64,000 nucleotides of DNA, taken from the NCBI GenBank assembly GCA_963806185.1, contig CAWDXE010000004.1:192001-256000 (forward strand). The letters are read 5' to 3'. Below the pieces are notes generated by a model. The model had not been told where the DNA came from and did no database searches. It saw only the letters and a list, made by a program, of their open reading frames with translations. Shown here piece after piece: positions 8,863-17,937 of the stretch. The position numbers were made by a program, and so were the translations under genes. How positions within the stretch are numbered: the first letter of the stretch is position 1; each line of letters starts with the position of its first letter. Source of the DNA: an uncultured candidate division Zixibacteria bacterium. Lineage in GTDB: Bacteria > Zixibacteria > MSB-5A5 > GN15 > FEB-12.

Positions 8863-8973
8863 AGTACTTCCAGTTATCGGTTGCCAGAGGTAATGAGATT
8901 AGTTCTGTCGAGCCGATCGGCCGTCGGATCGGATTCCGGACCCATTATAGCGAGAACGAGGGAGAGACGCCAC

Positions 8974-9000
8974 AAAAGAAAGGGCGCCCGAAGGCGCCCT
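8974..9000 (-). terminator. Intrinsic terminator of the redox operon
   Basis: Minus strand AGGGCGCC-TTCG-GGCGCCCT-TTCTTTT. Confidence 0.85.
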
Positions 9001-9029
9001 GAAATGATTGGCTCGTTCCGTTTTCGGTT

Positions 9030-9464
9030 CTACGCCGACTTTGTTTTCGTCGTCACGGCCGGCTCATATACCAGCGCTTTCGTGGGGCAGAAGTGGGCGC
9101 ACACCGGATCTCCGCCGCAGAGGTCACACTTGACGACCATATGGTGTTGTTTGTCAAGCAATGAACATCCAAACGGGCAGGAGGCGACACACGCGAGACA
9201 ACGAATGCACTTGGCCTGATCGATTTCCATCGCGCCCGTTGTTTCATTGCGCGTAATGGCATTCACCAGGCAGGACTTGGCGCAGGCAGGATCCTCGCAC
9301 TGCAGACAAACGACCGGCACCCACAGCTCCTTGAACGTCGTCGTCAACGGATAGATGCGACTCCGGCTCGGCTTACCCTCGACCGGATGAGAGAAGGAAC
9401 AGGCGAGTTCGCAGGTCCGGCAGCCGATGCAGAGATTCGGCTTAACGTAAAAACGGTTTTCCAT
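9030..9464 (-). CDS. 4x[4Fe-4S] electron-transfer protein (CooF/AorA/DmsB-like)
   Basis: CIGCRTCELAC, CLQCEDPACAKSC, CIRCLACVASCP, CDLC...CAHFCP; the start overlaps the upstream stop (TAATG). Confidence 0.9.
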   Translation of the reverse strand: MENRFYVKPNLCIGCRTCELACSFSHPVEGKPSRSRIYPLTTTFKELWVPVVCLQCEDPACAKSCLVNAITRNETTGAMEIDQAKCIRCLACVASCPFGCSLLDKQHHMVVKCDLCGGDPVCAHFCPTKALVYEPAVTTKTKSA

Positions 9465-10243
9465 TACTTTTCCTCCCGATCCCACGCGGACAGCTTGCCC
9501 ATCGTGACCGCCAATTCGTCGCGGTGCGTGTCATCACCCAATTCGTAATATTCAGCCGGAATCTGGCGATTCTTGGTGAGGTACTCGGCGAAATCTCTGG
9601 TAATTGTCGGGCGACCGGTTTTCTTGCAGCCCAAGAGCTCAAATTCTTTGCCCCAGATTTTCCGTTTCTTCCCCTTATCCTCGTACTTGATGTAGTTGGT
9701 AGGGCAGATTTCCGCACACGCAATACAACCCACACACGAGGGGGGCGGCTCGAATAGGGGAGGAGCGACTTCCCGGCCATGCCCACGGCCGACCATAGAA
9801 ATGGCATGAAAGCCCATTTGGTCGCAGATGCGTGTACACAGGCCGCACAGGATACAGTCATTGCCGTCCGGCACGGTTTCGAAACTCGTCTGGTCAATGC
9901 CGTGGTCGGCCGCCATCTTGCGAATCAGTTCGGCGTTGGGGCAACGGGCGAGAAAGAGATCAAGGATGGTCCGGCGAAGTTCAATCACTTCGGGCGAGTG
10001 GGTCGAAACGATGAGACCCTCTTCGGCCGGGTAGAGACAGGACGTTACATGGTTCTTCCAGCCGTTCCAGTCTTTCCGGGTGATCTCAACCGTGCACAAC
10101 CGACACCCGCCGTACGGCTCAACCGCGTCGTGGTGGCAGGTGGAAGGGATGTCGATGCCCATTCGCTTGATGACAGCCAGAAGCATCTCGCCATCTTTGG
10201 CCTGGACCATCTTACCATTTATTGTCAGTGTCACCATACGCAC
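9464..10243 (-). CDS. NuoG-N/HydA-N-like [2Fe-2S]/[4Fe-4S] subunit without a catalytic domain
   Basis: IPSTC...GGCRLCTVE...SC (Fer2), CILCGLCTRIC, CVGCIACAEICP; only 259 aa. Confidence 0.85.
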   Translation of the reverse strand: MRMVTLTINGKMVQAKDGEMLLAVIKRMGIDIPSTCHHDAVEPYGGCRLCTVEITRKDWNGWKNHVTSCLYPAEEGLIVSTHSPEVIELRRTILDLFLARCPNAELIRKMAADHGIDQTSFETVPDGNDCILCGLCTRICDQMGFHAISMVGRGHGREVAPPLFEPPPSCVGCIACAEICPTNYIKYEDKGKKRKIWGKEFELLGCKKTGRPTITRDFAEYLTKNRQIPAEYYELGDDTHRDELAVTMGKLSAWDREEK

Positions 10244-10245
10244 TC

Positions 10246-12099
10246 CTACCGCACGTCAATCGCTTCGTGTTTGCAGACGGTCACGCAGGCGCCACACTGA
10301 GTGCACTTGTCCTGGTGAATGACATGCATCGCTTTCTTCTCGCCGGTGATGGCGTGATAGGCGCAGGCCGATATGCAAGCCATGCACCCATTACATTTCT
10401 CATTGATCGTATACGTAATCAGCTCGCGGCAGACGCCGGCCGGGCATCGCTTCTCGCGGATGTGAGCCAGGTATTCATCCCGGAAATACTTGATCGTGCT
10501 CAGGAAGGGATTCGGACCCGATTTGCCGAGTCCGCAAAGCGAGCCGATGACGATGCTCTGCGAGAGCTTCTCCATCTTGTCCAGATCGGCTTCTTCGCCG
10601 CGCCCTTCGCTGATCTTAACCGCCAGGGCGTGGAGCTGGTACAGACCTTCGCGGCACGGCACACACTTCCCGCAGGATTCGGTGACGAGGAAGTGGAGGA
10701 AGTACTTCGCGACGTCGACCATGCAGGTGCGGTCGTCCATCACAATCATCCCGCCCGAGCCCATCATCGAGCCGTTCTCGGTCAGCGAGTCGAAATCGAC
10801 CGGCAGATCGAGCTTTTCGGTCGGCAGACAGCCGCCCGACGGGCCGCCGGTCTGGACCGCCTTGAAGGGACGATCCTCGAGTATCCCGCCACCAACATCG
10901 TAGATGATCTGGCGAAGCGTGGTCCCCATAGCCACCTCAATCAGGCCGGTGTTTTTCACCTTACCGACGAGCGAGAAGGCTTTCGTGCCGGTGCTCCGTT
11001 TTGTGCCGATCGACTTGTACCAGCTTGCACCTTTGGATATAATGAGCGGCACGTTGACGTAGGTCTCGACGTTGTTGAGGACGGTCGGCTGGTCCCAGAG
11101 ACCCTTGACGACCGAGCGGATATATTTTGCGCGCGGTTCGCCGACTTCGCCGGCGACCGAGCGCATCAGAGCCGACGATTCGCCGCACACGAATGCCCCA
11201 GCCCCGCGGGCAATCCTGATGTCAAACGAAAAGCCGGTTCCCAGAATATTCTCGCCCAGCAGTCCCGCCTCGCGGCACTGCTCAATAGCTTTTTGCAGAT
11301 TGACCACCGCGAGCGGGTATTCCTCGCGGACGTATATGTATCCTTCCTTGCCGCCCACGGCGAAGGCACAGATCATCATCCCTTCGAGTACCGCGTGCGG
11401 ATCACCCTCCATAATGCTTCGATCCATAAACGCACCCGGGTCGCCTTCGTCGCCGTTGCAGACAACGTAATGGGTCTCGGAAGGCACGTCGCGACACGTC
11501 TTCCACTTCTTACCTGCGGGGAAGCCGCCGCCGCCGCGTCCGCGCAAGCCCGATTCGGTGATCTCGTCGATGATCTGTTTCGGGCTCATCGTCGTGATCG
11601 CTTTGGCCAAACCCTGGTAGCCGCCCGTACCGATATACTCACGTATATCCGCCGGTCGAATCTGACCTACATTGCGCAGGGCGATGCGGTGCTGGTGGCG
11701 GAAGAAGCCGATTTCCTGATACTTCTCGATCTTTTCGCCGTTAGTCGGATTCTTATAGAGCAATTTCTCGACAGGCTTGTTCTTTTCGATCGTTTCTTCG
11801 ATGATCGTCTCGACGTCTTTCGGTTTGACGTGCGTGTAGAACGTCCCTTCCGGGTCGATGATGACCAACGGTCCCTGTTCGCAGAAGCCGTGACAACCGG
11901 TCTCTTTGATATCTTCAACGGTGTAGCCATGGACGCCGCGATCGCGGATGATCTGCTTCAGGGCATCGCTCACCTGCTGGGCGCCGTTGGCCAGACAACC
12001 GGTGCCGCAGCAAACGCGAATAGTCTTGGGGCGCGCCGCCTGTTGGGCGAGCACTTCCTTCTGAATTTTTATCAGTTGCGAAGGTTCGGTAATGCGCAT
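10246..12099 (-). CDS. NuoF/HydB-like NADH- and FMN-binding subunit
   Basis: GLRGRGGGGFP, NGDEGDPGAFMDR, SCGKCVPCREG, N-terminal [2Fe-2S] Trx-like domain and C-terminal 2x[4Fe-4S]. Confidence 0.95.
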   Translation of the reverse strand: MRITEPSQLIKIQKEVLAQQAARPKTIRVCCGTGCLANGAQQVSDALKQIIRDRGVHGYTVEDIKETGCHGFCEQGPLVIIDPEGTFYTHVKPKDVETIIEETIEKNKPVEKLLYKNPTNGEKIEKYQEIGFFRHQHRIALRNVGQIRPADIREYIGTGGYQGLAKAITTMSPKQIIDEITESGLRGRGGGGFPAGKKWKTCRDVPSETHYVVCNGDEGDPGAFMDRSIMEGDPHAVLEGMMICAFAVGGKEGYIYVREEYPLAVVNLQKAIEQCREAGLLGENILGTGFSFDIRIARGAGAFVCGESSALMRSVAGEVGEPRAKYIRSVVKGLWDQPTVLNNVETYVNVPLIISKGASWYKSIGTKRSTGTKAFSLVGKVKNTGLIEVAMGTTLRQIIYDVGGGILEDRPFKAVQTGGPSGGCLPTEKLDLPVDFDSLTENGSMMGSGGMIVMDDRTCMVDVAKYFLHFLVTESCGKCVPCREGLYQLHALAVKISEGRGEEADLDKMEKLSQSIVIGSLCGLGKSGPNPFLSTIKYFRDEYLAHIREKRCPAGVCRELITYTINEKCNGCMACISACAYHAITGEKKAMHVIHQDKCTQCGACVTVCKHEAIDVR

Positions 12100-12554
12100 C
12101 AGGTCACCTTCAACAGCTTCTTAAGGGCGCTGACCTTAAACGAGCCGTGATACTTATCGTTAAGAATGACTACCGGTGCCATAGCGCAGGCACCGACGCA
12201 CCCGACCACTTCGAGCGTGAATTTCATGTCGGGCGTGGTTTGCCCCGCCTTGATGCTGAGCAGGACTTCGGCCTGATCTTCGAGGAGTTTCGCGCCGCGA
12301 ATGTGGCAGGCCGTGCCGACGCAGATGCGAACTACGTTTTCACCCTTTGGATTCAAGCTGAAGGCGTTGTAGAAGGTGGAAACCGAAAACACTTTCGAGA
12401 GCGGAACGTTTAACGTTTCGGCCACCTGGAACAGCGCTTCGCACGGCAGAAAACGGTAGGTCTTCTGAATATCCTGCAGAATCATGATGAGCGACTCCGG
12501 TTTGGCCGGATGCCGGGCGATGATTCCAGGGATGAGGGAGAGGTCGTGGCTCAT
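12099..12554 (-). CDS. NuoE/HydC-like [2Fe-2S] subunit
   Basis: ICVGTACHIRG and GCVGACAMAP. Confidence 0.95.
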   Translation of the reverse strand: MSHDLSLIPGIIARHPAKPESLIMILQDIQKTYRFLPCEALFQVAETLNVPLSKVFSVSTFYNAFSLNPKGENVVRICVGTACHIRGAKLLEDQAEVLLSIKAGQTTPDMKFTLEVVGCVGACAMAPVVILNDKYHGSFKVSALKKLLKVT

Positions 12555-13111
12555 GCCGGGCTCCCGGGCACAGGCGTCGTCACCAGTTGGTACCCCTTTT
12601 CGAGGACGGCCAGGTTGACGTCGAGAACAGTCTTCTTGTACCCCAGTTTATCGATCAGGGTTTTGCGTACGCTATCATACGAAACGACACCGGAGGCGGC
12701 GACAAATGCGCCGAGCATGGCGACGTTGGCCGCTTTCACGTTGCCGGCCTCAAGGGCCATCTGGTTGCAGGGAACGAGCAATTGCGTGATGTCGGTGCGA
12801 TCCGATTTGGTATTGATGAGTGAAGAATTCACCAGCAACAATCCGCCCGTCTTGACTTTGGGACCAAACTTATCCAGCGAAGGCCGGTTGAACACACAGG
12901 CGGATTGGGGATTGTTGATGATCGGTGAGCCAATGCGACTGTCGGAGATCACGACCGTGCAGTAGGCAGTTCCGCCCCTCATCTCCGGACCGTAAGATGG
13001 AATCCAAACCACGTTCTTGCCCTCTTTGATACCCGAGTAGGCGAGAAGCTGGCCGACCATCATTATTCCCTGCCCGCCGAAGCCCGCGAGGGTGACTTCA
13101 AACTGAGCCAT
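12551..13111 (-). CDS. 2-oxoacid:ferredoxin oxidoreductase gamma subunit
   Basis: AGFGGQG, PSYGPEMRGGTA, ANVAMLGA. Confidence 0.95.
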   Translation of the reverse strand: MAQFEVTLAGFGGQGIMMVGQLLAYSGIKEGKNVVWIPSYGPEMRGGTAYCTVVISDSRIGSPIINNPQSACVFNRPSLDKFGPKVKTGGLLLVNSSLINTKSDRTDITQLLVPCNQMALEAGNVKAANVAMLGAFVAASGVVSYDSVRKTLIDKLGYKKTVLDVNLAVLEKGYQLVTTPVPGSPA

Positions 13112-13881
13112 CAGTGTCCTCCTGACTGCTCGGGTGACTTGACGCAACCCAGCGGATAATAGGGAATCATATTGTCACCGAGCCACTGGGTAGCTTCACC
13201 GGGAGACTTTCCCCAGTTGGTCGGACAGGTCGAAAGGACCTCAACCATCGAATAACAGGTATTGTCGATCTGGTACTGAAACGCGCGGCGAATCGCTTTC
13301 TTAGCCTTCAGGATGTGCATAGGCGAGTGAACGGATACCCGCTCAAGATAGGCAGGGGTAACCAGTCCGGACAGCAGTTCCACTACACGAATGGGGTACC
13401 CGGCCTTGCCGACATCACGGCCCGCGGGGCACGTCGTCGCCATCTGGCCTGGTAAGGTCGTCGGAGCCATTTGACCGCCGGTCATTCCGTAGATGGCGTT
13501 GTTCACGAAGATGGTCGTGAACTTCTCGCCACGGTTGACGGCGTGGACGATTTCTCCCATACCGATCGAGGCCAGGTCGCCGTCGCCTTGATAGGTGAAG
13601 ACGATCATGTCGGGGCGGATGCGTTTGAAGCCGGTCGCCAAGGCGGGAGCGCGGCCATGCGGCGCCTCCAGAAAATCAGTGTTGAAATAATTGTACGCGA
13701 GCACGGAACAGCCCACCGGCGCAACGCCAACAGTTCGCTCGCGCACCCCCAGTTCGTCGAGCACCTCGGCCACGAGACGGTGAATAATACCGTGCGTGCA
13801 GCCGGGGCAATAGTGCGTGACAACGTCGGTCAACGAATCGGGGCGTGCGAAAATAGTCCTGGTATCGTTCATATCGCTCAC
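13111..13881 (-). CDS. 2-oxoacid:ferredoxin oxidoreductase beta (TPP-binding) subunit
   Basis: YCPGCTHG, QGDGDLASIG, NNAIYGMTGGQ. Confidence 0.95.
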   Translation of the reverse strand: MSDMNDTRTIFARPDSLTDVVTHYCPGCTHGIIHRLVAEVLDELGVRERTVGVAPVGCSVLAYNYFNTDFLEAPHGRAPALATGFKRIRPDMIVFTYQGDGDLASIGMGEIVHAVNRGEKFTTIFVNNAIYGMTGGQMAPTTLPGQMATTCPAGRDVGKAGYPIRVVELLSGLVTPAYLERVSVHSPMHILKAKKAIRRAFQYQIDNTCYSMVEVLSTCPTNWGKSPGEATQWLGDNMIPYYPLGCVKSPEQSGGH

Positions 13882-14972
13882 CCTTTCGTCGCGGCCGTCT
13901 TCTTCGCGGACGGGCCGAGCAGTTTCTTGACCTGTTCTTTGACTTCGTCGGGTGACGGCACAATGCCGCCGGTGCGACCGAAGAAATCGATCGGCTTCTT
14001 ACCCTGGATGATCCGCTCGACATCCTCCACCATCTGTCCCATGCTCATTTCAATCGTGAGCACACGTTCGATATTCTTGCGGTAGGCCTCTTCGCGAAGT
14101 TGCGCTTCGCCAAAGGGAAAGAGGGTGATCGGACGGAACAGGCCGACCGAGATGCCCTCGCCTTCCAGCTCGTCGATAGCGGTCTGACAGATGCGAGCCA
14201 TCGTACCGTAGGCCACCAGCAGGATGCGATTTTTCGGATTGACCTTGTACAGCTCGTAGCGAACCTCATCCCGTTTGATGAGGTCGTATTTGGCGAAGAG
14301 TTCGATGTTGTTCTTTTCGAGCAGGATTGGGTCGAGAAAGAGCGATTTGACAATGAGCGGCGGTCGACCCTTCGCGCCCGTGGCTGCCCAGTCCTTGGGC
14401 GGCAGGGGCGGTTCTTCGATTTTGTCAGGGAACTCAACCGGTTCCATCATCTGGCCGATCATACCGTCGCCAATAATCATGACCGGATTGCGGTACTTGT
14501 CGGCGAGATGGAAAGCGAGAATCGTGAGATCGACGGCTTCCTGAATGGTTGACGGCGCCAGCACGAGCAGGCGGTAATCACCGTGCCCGCCACCCTTGAC
14601 AGCCTGGAAGTAATCCGACTGCGCCGGCAGAATGCCGCCGAGGCCGGGACCGCCACGCATGATATTCAAAATCACCGCCGGCACCTGAGCGCCTGCCATG
14701 TACGAGATCGATTCCTGCATGAGACTAATGCCCGGGCTGGAGGATGTCGTAAACACTCGTCGGCCGGTGGAGGCTGCGCCAAACAACATATTTCCGACTG
14801 CCACTTCGCTTTCGGCCTGCAGGAACACACCGCCCACTTCCGGCATCCGGCGGGAAAGATATTCGCCAACTTCGTTCTGCGGCGTGATCGGATAGCAGAA
14901 GTAGTTGGTGGCGCCGGCGCGAATCGCCGCCTCGGCGATCGCTTCATTTCCTTTCATGAGAACTTTTGCCAT
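13878..14972 (-). CDS. vorB: 2-oxoacid:ferredoxin oxidoreductase alpha subunit (VorB-type)
   Basis: KGNEAIAEAA, YPITPQ, QAESE, TTSSSPG, RGGPGLG. Confidence 0.9.
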   Translation of the reverse strand: MAKVLMKGNEAIAEAAIRAGATNYFCYPITPQNEVGEYLSRRMPEVGGVFLQAESEVAVGNMLFGAASTGRRVFTTSSSPGISLMQESISYMAGAQVPAVILNIMRGGPGLGGILPAQSDYFQAVKGGGHGDYRLLVLAPSTIQEAVDLTILAFHLADKYRNPVMIIGDGMIGQMMEPVEFPDKIEEPPLPPKDWAATGAKGRPPLIVKSLFLDPILLEKNNIELFAKYDLIKRDEVRYELYKVNPKNRILLVAYGTMARICQTAIDELEGEGISVGLFRPITLFPFGEAQLREEAYRKNIERVLTIEMSMGQMVEDVERIIQGKKPIDFFGRTGGIVPSPDEVKEQVKKLLGPSAKKTAATKG

Positions 14973-14990
14973 AACTCCTCACCGTCGCCG

Positions 14991-15224
14991 CTAATACTCA
15001 AACAGCACGTATTGCATGCCGTTGGTGTGAACCTCGATCGCCGCATCGGGGCAGGTAATGGCACAGATTCGGCAGCCGATACACCGCGACGGATCGTGCA
15101 CCTTGGCGTAGAAATAGCCGCGCAGTGTGATGTCCTTGGACATCGACAATATTTTCTGCGGGCAGGCGCGGACGCACAGTTCACACCCTTTGCAGTGGTT
15201 TTTGTCTATCGTGACACCGGGCAT
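14991..15224 (-). CDS. 2-oxoacid:ferredoxin oxidoreductase delta subunit (2x[4Fe-4S])
   Basis: CKGCELCVRACP and CIGCRICAITCP. Confidence 0.95.
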   Translation of the reverse strand: MPGVTIDKNHCKGCELCVRACPQKILSMSKDITLRGYFYAKVHDPSRCIGCRICAITCPDAAIEVHTNGMQYVLFEY

Positions 15225-15228
15225 CGGG

Positions 15229-15990
15229 TCATCTCCTTCGTAATCGTTCCATCCGGCTTTCGGTCATCCGCTCCCACGGTTTGAGCAGCGATCGTTCCAA
15301 TCGAAGCACCGGCACGCCCACCTCCTCGACCGTCAACTGATCAAGCATCTCGCCGACCGCGCTGAGAAAGAGGATGGGCAGGTGGGTACTCTCACTGACC
15401 TGGCGCGTCACCTCAAGACCCTCGCGCACAATGTCAGCCGTGGTATCAGCCATCAGATGGGTATTGGCAATCAGCCCCGTCATCGACATGCGCGAGGCCT
15501 CTTCAATTTCACGGATAATTCGTATCGATCCCGCCCGATCGGCGGTAAACGGACGACGGGCGTTGAGCACCATCGCCAACTCATACGTGTTCGGCGCAAA
15601 GGCGTCCCGCAGCGACGAAAGGACACGCGCGCCCATGTCGTCACCGCCGACGTCGAGTATCAGCCAGCCGCTGTTGCGCTCGATCGCCGTTCGGATCTCA
15701 GGCAGGATAATGGGCAGGTCCGCGTAGGCTTGAGCCCCCGGTGGGACCAGCGATTTTACGCCGAAGGTTTCCAACTCAGCGGCAGCCTCGCGGGACCGGA
15801 AGTAGGGGTTGATAATGTCGAGATCGGCGATCGCTACCGGGTCAGTCTCGACCGAGGAAAGTCGCCGGGCGAGATTAACCGCCACCTCCGACTTCCCTGA
15901 GCCGAAGCCCCCTACAATAGTAATGATACGTTTTGTGAATACGGGGGTGGGAAAGACCGGAGCGATCACTGTCGTACCTATGGCGTACAT
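15229..15990 (-). CDS. P-loop NTPase (CobQ/MinD/CooC-like) heading the OFOR operon
   Basis: IVGGFGSGKSE Walker A, ADLDIINPYFRSRE, ILDVGGD. Confidence 0.75.
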   Translation of the reverse strand: MYAIGTTVIAPVFPTPVFTKRIITIVGGFGSGKSEVAVNLARRLSSVETDPVAIADLDIINPYFRSREAAAELETFGVKSLVPPGAQAYADLPIILPEIRTAIERNSGWLILDVGGDDMGARVLSSLRDAFAPNTYELAMVLNARRPFTADRAGSIRIIREIEEASRMSMTGLIANTHLMADTTADIVREGLEVTRQVSESTHLPILFLSAVGEMLDQLTVEEVGVPVLRLERSLLKPWERMTESRMERLRRR

Positions 15991-16175: not shown

Positions 16176-16231
16176 CTTACGAGGTAATTACTTAGACGAA
16201 TCACTCGGAAAAGACAAAATATGGTTTGCGT

Positions 16232-17152
16232 ATGATGACACTGGCTAAATCGCATGCTCGAGGGGGATTACTGTCTCCGACCCTTTTGAAACTGGCACTC
16301 GTTTCGACAGTCGTAGCGCTGACTGTCGTTCTCGCCGGTTGCGGCAAAAAAGAGACAACTCAGACCCAAGCTCCGGGGACGGATTCCACAGTCATCGGCA
16401 CGAGCGACGGAGCCGGATCGACCGGCCCCGGCTCTGCTGGCACGTCGGAGCGATCCGGTTACCAGGATTGGGAATCGTATACGTTTGAAACCGTGAAGAT
16501 GATTTATCCACCCTACCATCCGCTCAAGCCTCAGATTCCGAGTAATGTCGAGGCATTCGCGAGAGCGCTCAAATCGGCAACTCAGAAATTGGGCATGGCA
16601 CCGGTTACAGACTCACTGGTCATCATCTACTATACCGGCTTCGGACAGGGGCGGGAGCTGACCGGACACGAGTATCCGTACGCCGAATCCGACACCGTTC
16701 ACCTTTGGCTACCCAGCTTCCCGGGTCCGCCGCTTATGCAGTGGCTACTGCCGAAGTGGTCGCCGGTGGTACCGAGGTATCCGTTCCTTCGGCACGGCCT
16801 GATCGCCATGTTCGATCTGTCCGGTCAGAACTATCATCAGGCAACCCATCTATTGCTCGATTCCAACCAGTTCATTTCGCTTCGCCGACTCGTTGTTGAT
16901 ACAGCCGTCAACAGCAATACGGAACGGCTCCAATCGGCCGAAGCAGCCTCCTTCGTGGCGTTTCTTTTGGCGTACAAGGGCCCCAACGAACTCAAACAGA
17001 TGTACGAATCCGATCTCCCGTTTGACAGTCTGATGCGTGTCGAATTTGGCACCGCTGTGGATACGGTGCAGGCGATCTGGCTGACCTTCGCAAAGAAGAA
17101 TGTCCCCGCCGAGCTTACGGCGAAGGGGGGGACGAAGAAGAGCACTCCTTAA
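16232..17152 (+). CDS. Lipoprotein, degenerate gluzincin/peptidase MA-like fold
   Basis: Lipobox LAGC, T/S/G-rich linker, FLRHGL and AASFVAFLL...G motifs; no HExxH. Confidence 0.55.
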   Translation: MMTLAKSHARGGLLSPTLLKLALVSTVVALTVVLAGCGKKETTQTQAPGTDSTVIGTSDGAGSTGPGSAGTSERSGYQDWESYTFETVKMIYPPYHPLKPQIPSNVEAFARALKSATQKLGMAPVTDSLVIIYYTGFGQGRELTGHEYPYAESDTVHLWLPSFPGPPLMQWLLPKWSPVVPRYPFLRHGLIAMFDLSGQNYHQATHLLLDSNQFISLRRLVVDTAVNSNTERLQSAEAASFVAFLLAYKGPNELKQMYESDLPFDSLMRVEFGTAVDTVQAIWLTFAKKNVPAELTAKGGTKKSTP

Positions 17153-17172
17153 TCTACTCATAGAGGTTTAGT

Positions 17173-17937
17173 ATGGCAGACCAACCGTGGAAAACCGCGA
17201 TCACCGATATCGGCCCCGGTAAGATTCGGGTGCGCGGATACGCCATTGGCGATATCATGGAGAATCTCTCGTACGCCGAGGCGGTGTACCTGATCCTGAA
17301 AGGTCAACTCCCGACCAAAGCCGAGGCGGCGCTCATGAACGCCATCCTCGTGTCTTCAATAGATCATGGTGCGTCGCCGCCCTCGGTGCTTGGCACGCGG
17401 ACTGTGCTCTCCGGAGGCAATTCACTCAATGCGGCGATCGCCGGCGGTGTGCTGGTGATCGGTGACTCGCACGGCGGCGCCATCGAACAGGCGGCGAAGC
17501 ATTTCCAGGACTGGGCGAAGAAAGAGGGCGACGTGGCCGGGCTGGCCGATCAGATGGTCGACTGGATGAAAGAGAAGAGGATTCGTATGCCCGGGTTTGG
17601 ACACCGATTGCATAATGTCGATCCGCGCACGGGGAAGCTGTTTGAGATCGCGGCGCGCAACGGTTACAGTGGGCGGCACATTGAATTGTGCAAGGCGCTG
17701 GAGAAGGCGCTCGCGGCCAAGACGGGGAAGCCGCTCCCCATTAATGTAGACGGGGCGATTGCGGCCGTGATTAGCGATATGGGGTTTGACTGGCGGTTGG
17801 GAAAGGGGTTCTTCATTATTTCGCGGGTACCGGGACTCTTGGCGCACGCGTATGAAGAGATGACGCGCGAGAAGCCGATGCGTCCGCTCGGTCCTCCGCC
17901 GTACGAGTACGACGGTCCGGGGGAGAGGGAGATGTAG
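17173..17937 (+). CDS. Citryl-CoA lyase (citrate synthase family)
   Basis: WKTAIT, IRVRGY, IDHG, HGGA, PGFGHR, NVDG; 254 aa. Confidence 0.85.
   Translation: MADQPWKTAITDIGPGKIRVRGYAIGDIMENLSYAEAVYLILKGQLPTKAEAALMNAILVSSIDHGASPPSVLGTRTVLSGGNSLNAAIAGGVLVIGDSHGGAIEQAAKHFQDWAKKEGDVAGLADQMVDWMKEKRIRMPGFGHRLHNVDPRTGKLFEIAARNGYSGRHIELCKALEKALAAKTGKPLPINVDGAIAAVISDMGFDWRLGKGFFIISRVPGLLAHAYEEMTREKPMRPLGPPPYEYDGPGEREM

Follow-up and report, generated by a model that had tools for sequence, protein, structure and literature searches.

A Zixiibacteriota operon that may wire a VorB-type 2-oxoacid oxidoreductase into a WorABCS-like bifurcating module

Which enzyme feeds an electron-bifurcating module that is encoded without a catalytic subunit of its own? 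The question is raised by nine minus-strand genes of an uncultured Zixibacteria bacterium, which lie in the stretch of 64,000 nucleotides analysed here (positions 192,001 to 256,000 of contig CAWDXE010000004.1, assembly GCA_963806185.1; hereafter the window). The host genome (G000) measures 3.65 Mb and is 82% complete. A preliminary description, made from the sequence alone, had proposed that the same operon's 2-oxoacid:ferredoxin oxidoreductase (OFOR) may be the catalytic partner, or alternatively that the module is a stand-alone ferredoxin:NAD(H) hub. The first idea is now supported by the lack of aldehyde oxidoreductase (AOR), formate dehydrogenase (FDH), NiFe hydrogenase and carbon monoxide dehydrogenase (CODH) genes behind the operon in 91 loci, by an AOR being found in only three of 41 genomes (G000 and 40 relatives, Ca. 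Zixiibacteriota by record titles), by a C-terminal tail of the delta subunit and by a complex model. The operon is real and conserved, and it probably encodes one enzyme. In the reading that we favour with fair confidence, the OFOR is docked through delta on a wire subunit, S, which is held by BfuA, and feeds BfuBC for the reduction of NAD+ and ferredoxin.

Operon layout and the Bfu module

All nine open reading frames (ORFs) were found on the minus strand of the window, in the order P-loop ATPase, OFOR delta, alpha, beta, gamma, BfuC, BfuB, BfuA and S:

15229..15990, minus strand: putative P-loop ATPase (GGFGSGKS), CbiA/MinD-like, by motif and look-alike clusters
14991..15224, minus strand: OFOR delta, 2x[4Fe-4S], by Fer4 (Pfam/NCBIfam)
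14991..15029, minus strand: delta C-terminal tail, residues 66-77, predicted docking strand that meets S 3-9 and BfuA 248, by motif and model
13878..14972, minus strand: OFOR alpha, VorB subfamily, with YPITP and RGGPGLGG motifs, by POR_N/PFOR_II and NF005507
13111..13881, minus strand: OFOR beta, thiamine pyrophosphate (TPP) site GDGD and proximal [4Fe-4S] C25, C28, C58, C219, by TPP_enzyme_C
12551..13108, minus strand: OFOR gamma, POR family, with a 4-bp overlap with BfuC
12099..12554, minus strand: BfuC (NuoE/HydC-like), C1 [2Fe-2S] ligands C78, C83, C119, C123, by 2Fe-2S_thioredx
10246..12099, minus strand: BfuB (long NuoF/HydB), flavin mononucleotide (FMN)/NAD site, B5, B1, B2, B3 and B4, by Pfam/NCBIfam and alignment
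9464..10243, minus strand: BfuA, type 2, A1, A2 and A4 ligands, by NuoG-N match and alignment
9470..9535, minus strand: C-terminal helix of BfuA (residues 237-258), counterpart of the WorA adaptor helix, by AlphaFold2
9030..9461, minus strand: S, WorS-like 4x[4Fe-4S] wire subunit, best PDB match 9MQX_E
8971..9000, minus strand: intrinsic-terminator-like hairpin, C(UUCG)G loop and U-rich tail, by sequence and fold

With ATG starts (gamma at 13108, S at 9461), the intergenic gaps from the ATPase to S are +4, +18, -4, +2, -4, -1, +2 and +2 bp. This agrees with the earlier statement that the genes overlap or lie at most 18 bp apart (recomputed range, -4 to +18 bp), and from this spacing we infer that the nine genes are co-transcribed. 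The gamma-BfuC overlap is found in 35 of 58 operons. The UUCG terminator said to close the operon was also located, as an 8-bp stem, a UUCG loop and a U-rich tail at 9000-8981 (z -2.5; 4 of 200 shuffles fold equally well), and a promoter scan stayed at chance level, with 6 found versus 6.4 expected. As had been described, no gene for an H-cluster, molybdopterin FDH, AOR or NiFe large subunit follows the operon in the window.

The module belongs to the Bfu family by its composition: BfuC carries C1, BfuA carries A1 and A2 and is encoded in the same operon, and BfuB has the full cluster set. The long HydB architecture previously attributed to BfuB was recovered, with an N-terminal thioredoxin-like 2Fe-2S domain followed by Complex1_51K, SLBB, NADH_4Fe-4S and two C-terminal Fer4 domains. 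Its ligand Cys are all kept in 56-58 of 58 operons, and its B2 site (Zn-type; C459/H546/C552/C557), aligned with C438, H525, C531 and C536 of NiFe-HydB, is invariant.

Bifurcating beta-subunits are marked by Ala232, Met234, a Phe and GGPSG (Losey 2020; PMC7311640). The corresponding A223, M225, F303 and GGPSG of BfuB are invariant in 58 of 58 operons. F303, in GAGAF, is the best match to the marker Phe and is aligned with Nqo1 residue 180, presumably a Tyr. The number given by Losey for the Phe, 367, corresponds to A358 in BfuB, and the Phe was taken as F303 via Nqo1 instead. The preliminary description was thus right about the Ala and Met and wrong about the Phe, which it had placed in PVDFD (F436), a position occupied by Tyr in the bifurcating enzymes 7q4v, 7t2r and 9bov. 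Judged by its residues, the finding that BfuB has the bifurcation markers stands despite this correction.

BfuA is a protein of 259 aa with 12 cluster Cys only, devoid of HxxxC after A1, of an A3 motif and of a catalytic domain; having neither A3 nor A5, it falls under the type-2 Bfu definition. The closest solved chain is WorA for BfuA (9MQX_A) and WorB for BfuB (9MQX_B), and the best solved match of S is likewise a chain of WorABCSL (9MQX). On this comparison, the module is WorABCS without WorL. The BfuA of WorABCSL from Acetomicrobium mobile has at its C-terminus a Zn finger and an adaptor helix by which WorS, the iron-sulfur wire that runs to the catalytic subunit, is recruited, and coupling of NAD+ and ferredoxin was demonstrated with aldehydes (PMC12318220). 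A BfuA C-terminal extension of 13-35 residues is present in 59 of 59 alignment rows, and AlphaFold2 gives a helix at residues 237-258 of the BfuA of the window (mean pLDDT 71; 70-82 across most of the helix). The Zn finger, which retains one of its four Cys in the window, is intact in 40 of 59 rows; it is degenerate in the other 19, in more than one lineage, and the helix behind it is retained.

The 16 cluster Cys of S are invariant in 58 of 58 operons. Its tails are not conserved (7-34 residues past the last cluster), and in the window S stops at residue 143, before the region matching WorS 143-152, the oligomerisation helix. As S ends before this helix, a 3:1 nanowire is unlikely. The likeness to WorABCSL therefore covers the closest solved relatives of BfuA, BfuB and S, the adaptor helix and a low-potential third substrate, whereas WorL/AOR is missing, S has no oligomerisation helix and the Zn finger is only partly kept.

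The top NCBIfam match of S, under cut-off, is the N-terminal domain of PadI. PadEFGHI, the phenylglyoxylate:NAD+ oxidoreductase, combines an OFOR, an S-like 4x[4Fe-4S] domain, which is fused to beta, and an NAD-reducing flavoprotein other than Bfu; we know of no report of bifurcation by Pad. The complex might accordingly be real and send its electrons to NAD+ alone or to ferredoxin alone, with loose coupling, as in that NAD-dependent enzyme. We regard this as improbable. The PadI match is consistent with it, and the oxidation of a 2-oxoacid (about -500 mV) can reduce either acceptor (PMC9304861, Table 1); against it stand the invariance of the B1-B5 and C1 ligands and of the marker residues, and the fact that WorABCSL, with an equally low-potential donor, requires both acceptors (PMC12318220).

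The delta tail and its predicted docking

The element that sets these operons apart is found at the end of delta, a subunit with eight invariant Cys in the alignment. The tail motif occurs in 62 of 66 deltas linked to Bfu genes, a set that holds at least one duplicate row, versus 0 of 38 unlinked ones, two of which come from loci cut before Bfu could be visible. Linked deltas end exactly 18 residues past the last Cys-Pro in 65 of 66 cases, with a hydrophobic tail and a terminal Tyr (96%). The unlinked set takes in 18 operons of another phylum (that of G206, titled Bacillota) with the same ATPase-delta-alpha-beta-gamma order. As these ATPase-OFOR operons lack both the tail and Bfu, the idea that the tail goes with the ATPase was rejected: the tail tracks Bfu.

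Modelled alone, delta has an unstructured tail (pLDDT 67). When delta was modelled as the partner of BfuA and S, the score reached 0.77, versus 0.02 for the best control; the mark used, which 116 of 157 solved complexes and 2 of 215 mismatched pairs pass, is a rough guide for a three-chain job. At least 89% of contacts are common to the runs, the partner pLDDT is at least 83, and replacing BfuA abolishes the score. In the model, the stretch 66-75 of delta is paired with S 1-9 and in contact with BfuA 244-254, while delta 22-23 and 44-53, around the cluster C48/C51/C54/C21, meet S 51-59 and 96-97; the second cluster of delta is thereby predicted to be brought beside an S cluster. The complex modelling that had been proposed as a check gave a passing score for three of the nine chains, and it supports a predicted binding of delta, S and BfuA.

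Could delta present this face while it sits in an intact OFOR? A ferredoxin-OFOR docking model places the first-motif cluster against beta (PMC5020499). The non-Cys residues kept in all deltas (K12, G13, L16, G36, Y37, A40, D60, I63 and V65) lie outside the predicted interface. With the Cys numbering that we assume for the ferredoxin of that docking model, both the docking and the position of these shared residues argue for a first-motif cluster facing beta, in which case the modelled delta face would be compatible with an intact OFOR.

The enzyme that we favour would then operate as follows. The OFOR, whose gamma subunit we take to be the CoA-binding domain III, would decarboxylate a 2-oxoacid with CoA, and the delta tail would lie as a strand on S, touching the BfuA helix. 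Electrons would pass from TPP to the beta cluster, the medial and distal clusters of delta (an assignment based on one docking model and on conservation), S, A4, A2, A1 and B1/FMN. By analogy with WorABCSL acting on aldehydes, BfuBC would reduce NAD+ and ferredoxin (Fd) jointly, for a putative net reaction of 2 oxoacid + 2 CoA + NAD+ + 2 Fd(ox) -> 2 acyl-CoA + 2 CO2 + NADH + 2 Fd(red).

Alternatively, the OFOR and BfuABC-S could be co-expressed and yet separate, the OFOR reducing free ferredoxin and the module serving as a ferredoxin:NAD(H) hub. The ATPase-OFOR block does occur without Bfu in other lineages, and can hence stand by itself as a unit; a free 2x[4Fe-4S] ferredoxin is also encoded in the genome, and the PorE polyferredoxin of POR clusters is not invariably found in the enzyme as purified (PMC13768988). 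Separate enzymes would nevertheless leave both the Bfu-only delta tail and the complex model unexplained, and the A4 arm of a type-2 BfuABC-S lacks any input unless there is a third substrate (PMC9304861). The stand-alone hub of the preliminary description is thus the less likely of its two proposals, and we consider it rather unlikely.

Distribution of the operon and search for another partner

Among the 40 relatives, an alpha orthologue was found in 32, a BfuA orthologue in 30 and neither in 8. The two genomes with alpha and no BfuA orthologue (G007 and G021) were rejected as cases of an OFOR on its own, as their contigs end inside the operon, which is therefore counted in 32 of 40 relatives. 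Gene order is identical in all 30 loci fetched, as far as the contigs reach, and the synteny that the preliminary description had asked about is thus kept. In a scan of species genomes, among the best 80 of 593 stretches, the nine-gene operon is also found in records titled Delongbacteria, Bacteroidia, Acidobacteriota, Phycisphaerales, Planctomycetia, Electryonea and Smithella. The 79 distinct S genes sit behind BfuA; gamma and BfuC are visible for 75, whereas contig ends truncate the loci of the remaining 4.

An NF005507-like alpha is encoded by 180 of 201 genomes of the phylum, at 70-85% identity in 122 and near 50% in 58. The first group shows the whole operon in 8 of 8 further loci, and the second shows Bfu or ATPase in 0 of 20 loci, one of which is cut before gamma.

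Several loci differ in their make-up, as judged partly from a quick BfuB tree built from sequences other than characterised references. L077 and L078 look mosaic, with a BfuB 69-70% identical and nested in the Zixiibacteriota clade, an alpha at 62-64%, a gamma at 42-44% and an S at 44-46%. The nine-gene operon of L098 (titled Smithella), whose BfuA is split by a frameshift, nests within the Zixiibacteriota clade, a placement that would reflect either transfer or mis-binning. At L101:6127-15005 (titled Myxococcales), BfuCBA lies between CdhD and genes for CODH/acetyl-CoA synthase (ACS), with neither OFOR nor S; its BfuB nests among VorB-linked BfuB and its BfuA has a C-terminal extension. BfuC-BfuB fusions (about 800 aa), followed by a BfuA with a long C-terminal fusion (up to about 1,320 aa), are found in L105, L106, L111-L113, L118 and L120, and an AOR-like gene lies just upstream of the fusion in L113.

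We then considered that BfuABC-S could serve an AOR, FDH, CODH or hydrogenase subunit encoded elsewhere, the OFOR being a mere neighbour. References for AOR, NiFe, CODH and molybdopterin enzymes (FeFe was not among them) gave no BLAST match up to 8 kb 3' of S in 91 loci; at least 2 kb were in view in 64 of the 79 distinct loci. Downstream ORFs were read by eye for L006-L035 and for 14 mostly non-Zixiibacteriota operon loci. The preliminary description had named an AOR or FDH gene right after the ferredoxin-like gene of relatives as contrary evidence, and none was seen in these 91 loci. Genome-wide, the 41 genomes gave an AOR in 3, a FeFe-type match in 7, prismane/CODH in 3, NiFe over cut-off in 23 and the molybdopterin family in 41. 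WorL/AOR was neither present in the operon nor found in G000 (82% complete).

A partner encoded elsewhere would fit the WorABCS-like character of the module, the AOR found elsewhere in three operon-bearing genomes and the S1/S2 end of S, which is free in the model. Those three AORs, however, each adjoin an S-type gene of their own (L039-L041). Furthermore, G026 (100% complete) and G010 (97%) carry the operon and have no AOR, FeFe-type or prismane/CODH match, nor NiFe over cut-off, their sole molybdopterin-family match being NuoG of complex I. As these two genomes have no candidate and the AORs have their own S, an outside partner is not a general explanation. The search for orphan large subunits that had been recommended thus gave no class common to the operon-bearing genomes, and AOR, FeFe, NiFe, CODH and molybdopterin candidates were rejected; we regard a partner encoded elsewhere as very unlikely.

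Two other Bfu clusters were seen in the host genome. The one at G000:C1:549350-558422 comprises, by eye, Hdr-like genes, BfuC, BfuB, a BfuA-HdrA fusion, MvhD, MvhG and MvhA, and may encode a NiFe hydrogenase equipped with two candidate bifurcating units. The other, at G000:C8:94765-100636, is NfnA/StnC-like and has many frameshifts that look like assembly errors.

Direction, substrate and comparison with known systems

In which direction would the single enzyme run? Acyl-CoA carboxylation driven by NADH and reduced ferredoxin has been proposed for the Por-Bfu of Dehalococcoides (PMC9304861), and the Vor of a methanogen is described as a 2-oxoisovalerate synthase (PMC3087415), both of which would suit a complex working mainly in reverse. 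The mean potential of such a donor would be -390 mV (from -280 and -500; PMC9304861), which by our arithmetic is, for a reaction at -500 mV, less favourable than ferredoxin by itself by about 110 mV (about 21 kJ per 2 electrons), and one Zixibacteria genome has been read as that of a heterotroph (PMC3903129). Since ferredoxin by itself reduces more strongly than NADH and ferredoxin combined, we favour oxidation as the direction, and we hold a mainly reverse reaction to be a minor possibility.

Alpha matches the VorB-subfamily model NF005507 with 518 bits (cut-off 399), and no close solved structure was found for this subfamily. Because of the subfamily name, and because G000 separately encodes a 2-oxoglutarate oxidoreductase (OGOR) in a tricarboxylic acid cycle operon, an indolepyruvate oxidoreductase (IOR) and a one-chain pyruvate:ferredoxin oxidoreductase (PFOR; all by eye), there is about an even chance, on gene content, that the substrates are branched-chain 2-oxoacids derived from amino acids. 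An anti-correlation with E1-type oxoacid dehydrogenases was looked for in the 41 genomes and not seen.

Several points weigh against a single OFOR-Bfu enzyme. The model covers three of the nine chains, and it was controlled with unrelated proteins rather than with a tail-less delta or a ferredoxin. In it, delta takes roughly the place of the next WorS in solved wires (9MQX, 8C0Z, 7QV7; clusters assigned via a DmsB-type ligation that we assume), a likeness that may have helped the model to pass. The S1/S2 end of S, which is the WorL dock in Wor, has invariant Cys, and in the model it is left open and might accommodate a different partner. As the tail is characteristic of a clade and the linked operons are related, the 62 of 66 do not count as 62 independent events. 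G000 is only 82% complete, VorB is a family name and not an assayed substrate, and 35 of the 41 genomes encode an E1-type dehydrogenase. Finally, Bfu modules swap partners, as the mosaic look of L077 and L078 would suggest and as L101, in sequence likely a Codh/ACS-Bfu, would indicate.

How does the operon compare with known systems? The idea of a catalytic OFOR is not new, as it is already in print as Por-Bfu (PMC9304861). Por-Bfu (A-G) was predicted from 12 sequences of Chloroflexi/Dehalococcoides and syntrophic Proteobacteria, none of them characterised (Schut 2022; PMC9304861), and is described by Feng 2025 as lacking the BfuA C-terminal helix and a WorS homolog (PMC12318220). Both systems share four OFOR domains in an operon with BfuCBA, a type-2 BfuA (A1, A2, A4) and a 2-oxoacid as the proposed third substrate. 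The operon of the window differs from Por-Bfu by its VorB-type alpha, BfuA helix, S, delta tail and ATPase. Eight Dehalococcoidia/Chloroflexota loci do fit Por-Bfu: their BfuA ends 1-2 residues past the Zn finger, and they have neither S nor ATPase. The Dehalococcoidia loci have a PorA-type alpha (two alphas were scanned, both best on PorA models), a gamma-delta-alpha-beta order and a BfuB forming a clade apart from VorB-linked BfuB in the quick tree (SH-aLRT 99). This comparison rests on the published description, and some of the 12 sequences of Schut may be of the VorB/S type.

Likenesses are also found among OFOR operons. As in VorB-subfamily operons, e.g. that of the Methanothermobacter 2-oxoisovalerate synthase, alpha passes NF005507, and the Bacillota ATPase-delta-alpha-beta-gamma operons share gene order and ATPase with the window; neither kind has Bfu after gamma or a delta tail. 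The operon works like Por-Bfu and is built like Wor-Bfu, and it departs from each in a defining feature; the delta tail and its predicted docking are the new element here.

In the literature found, the term Por-Bfu occurs in two papers, neither of which has a purified enzyme, no 2-oxoacid oxidoreductase is shown to be wired into a bifurcating complex, and this operon is not the subject of any paper as judged from titles and the openings of abstracts, subscription journals being mostly outside the search; the available part of a 2026 PFOR review does not mention Bfu (PMC13768988). A possible scenario, to which we give slightly less than even weight, is an origin independent of Por-Bfu: a WorABCS would have parted with its tungsten enzyme and taken up a Vor-type OFOR, with a 10-residue delta plug replacing the next WorS. 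Much of Zixiibacteriota and several other uncultured lineages would then have the product as a core enzyme of catabolism, one that would split the electrons of amino acids evenly between NADH and ferredoxin.

The operon is a second, differently built case beside Por-Bfu, which was predicted from gene order, and the delta plug makes a physical OFOR-Bfu wiring directly testable. If the single enzyme is real, loss of the ten-residue tail should uncouple NAD+ reduction from oxoacid oxidation, a TPP enzyme would join the demonstrated Bfu partners, and the locus would show how Bfu modules gain new catalytic heads. It would also alter the redox and ATP accounting of how a widespread, uncultured phylum breaks down amino acids; the genes of the operon are probably annotated there as parts of hydrogenases or complex I.

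The ATPase has no Pfam or NCBIfam match, and within its look-alike clusters about one member in four carries the CbiA family. It lies upstream of delta-alpha in 20 of 30 loci of the Bacillota phylum, and 0 of the 17 extended ATPase-OFOR loci of that phylum that reach gamma show Bfu genes behind it (1.5-6.8 kb in view). The ATPase thus accompanies VorB-type OFOR operons with or without Bfu behind them and, from these associations, is probably accessory to the OFOR rather than to the Bfu link; a role in maturation is a guess. In L162, L164 and L166, where no delta-alpha follows, the ATPase family is, by eye, part of a single ORF (about 710-740 aa) whose N-terminal portion is FolC-like.

Elsewhere in the host genome, G000:C7:93908-95355 holds an hgcA/hgcB-like pair of the mercury-methylation type, by motif only. 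Divergently upstream of the operon, at 16226-17937 on the plus strand of the window, lie genes for an uncharacterised 308-aa protein and a citrate-synthase-family protein, whose counterparts lie directly 3' of S in several relatives that belong to other families.

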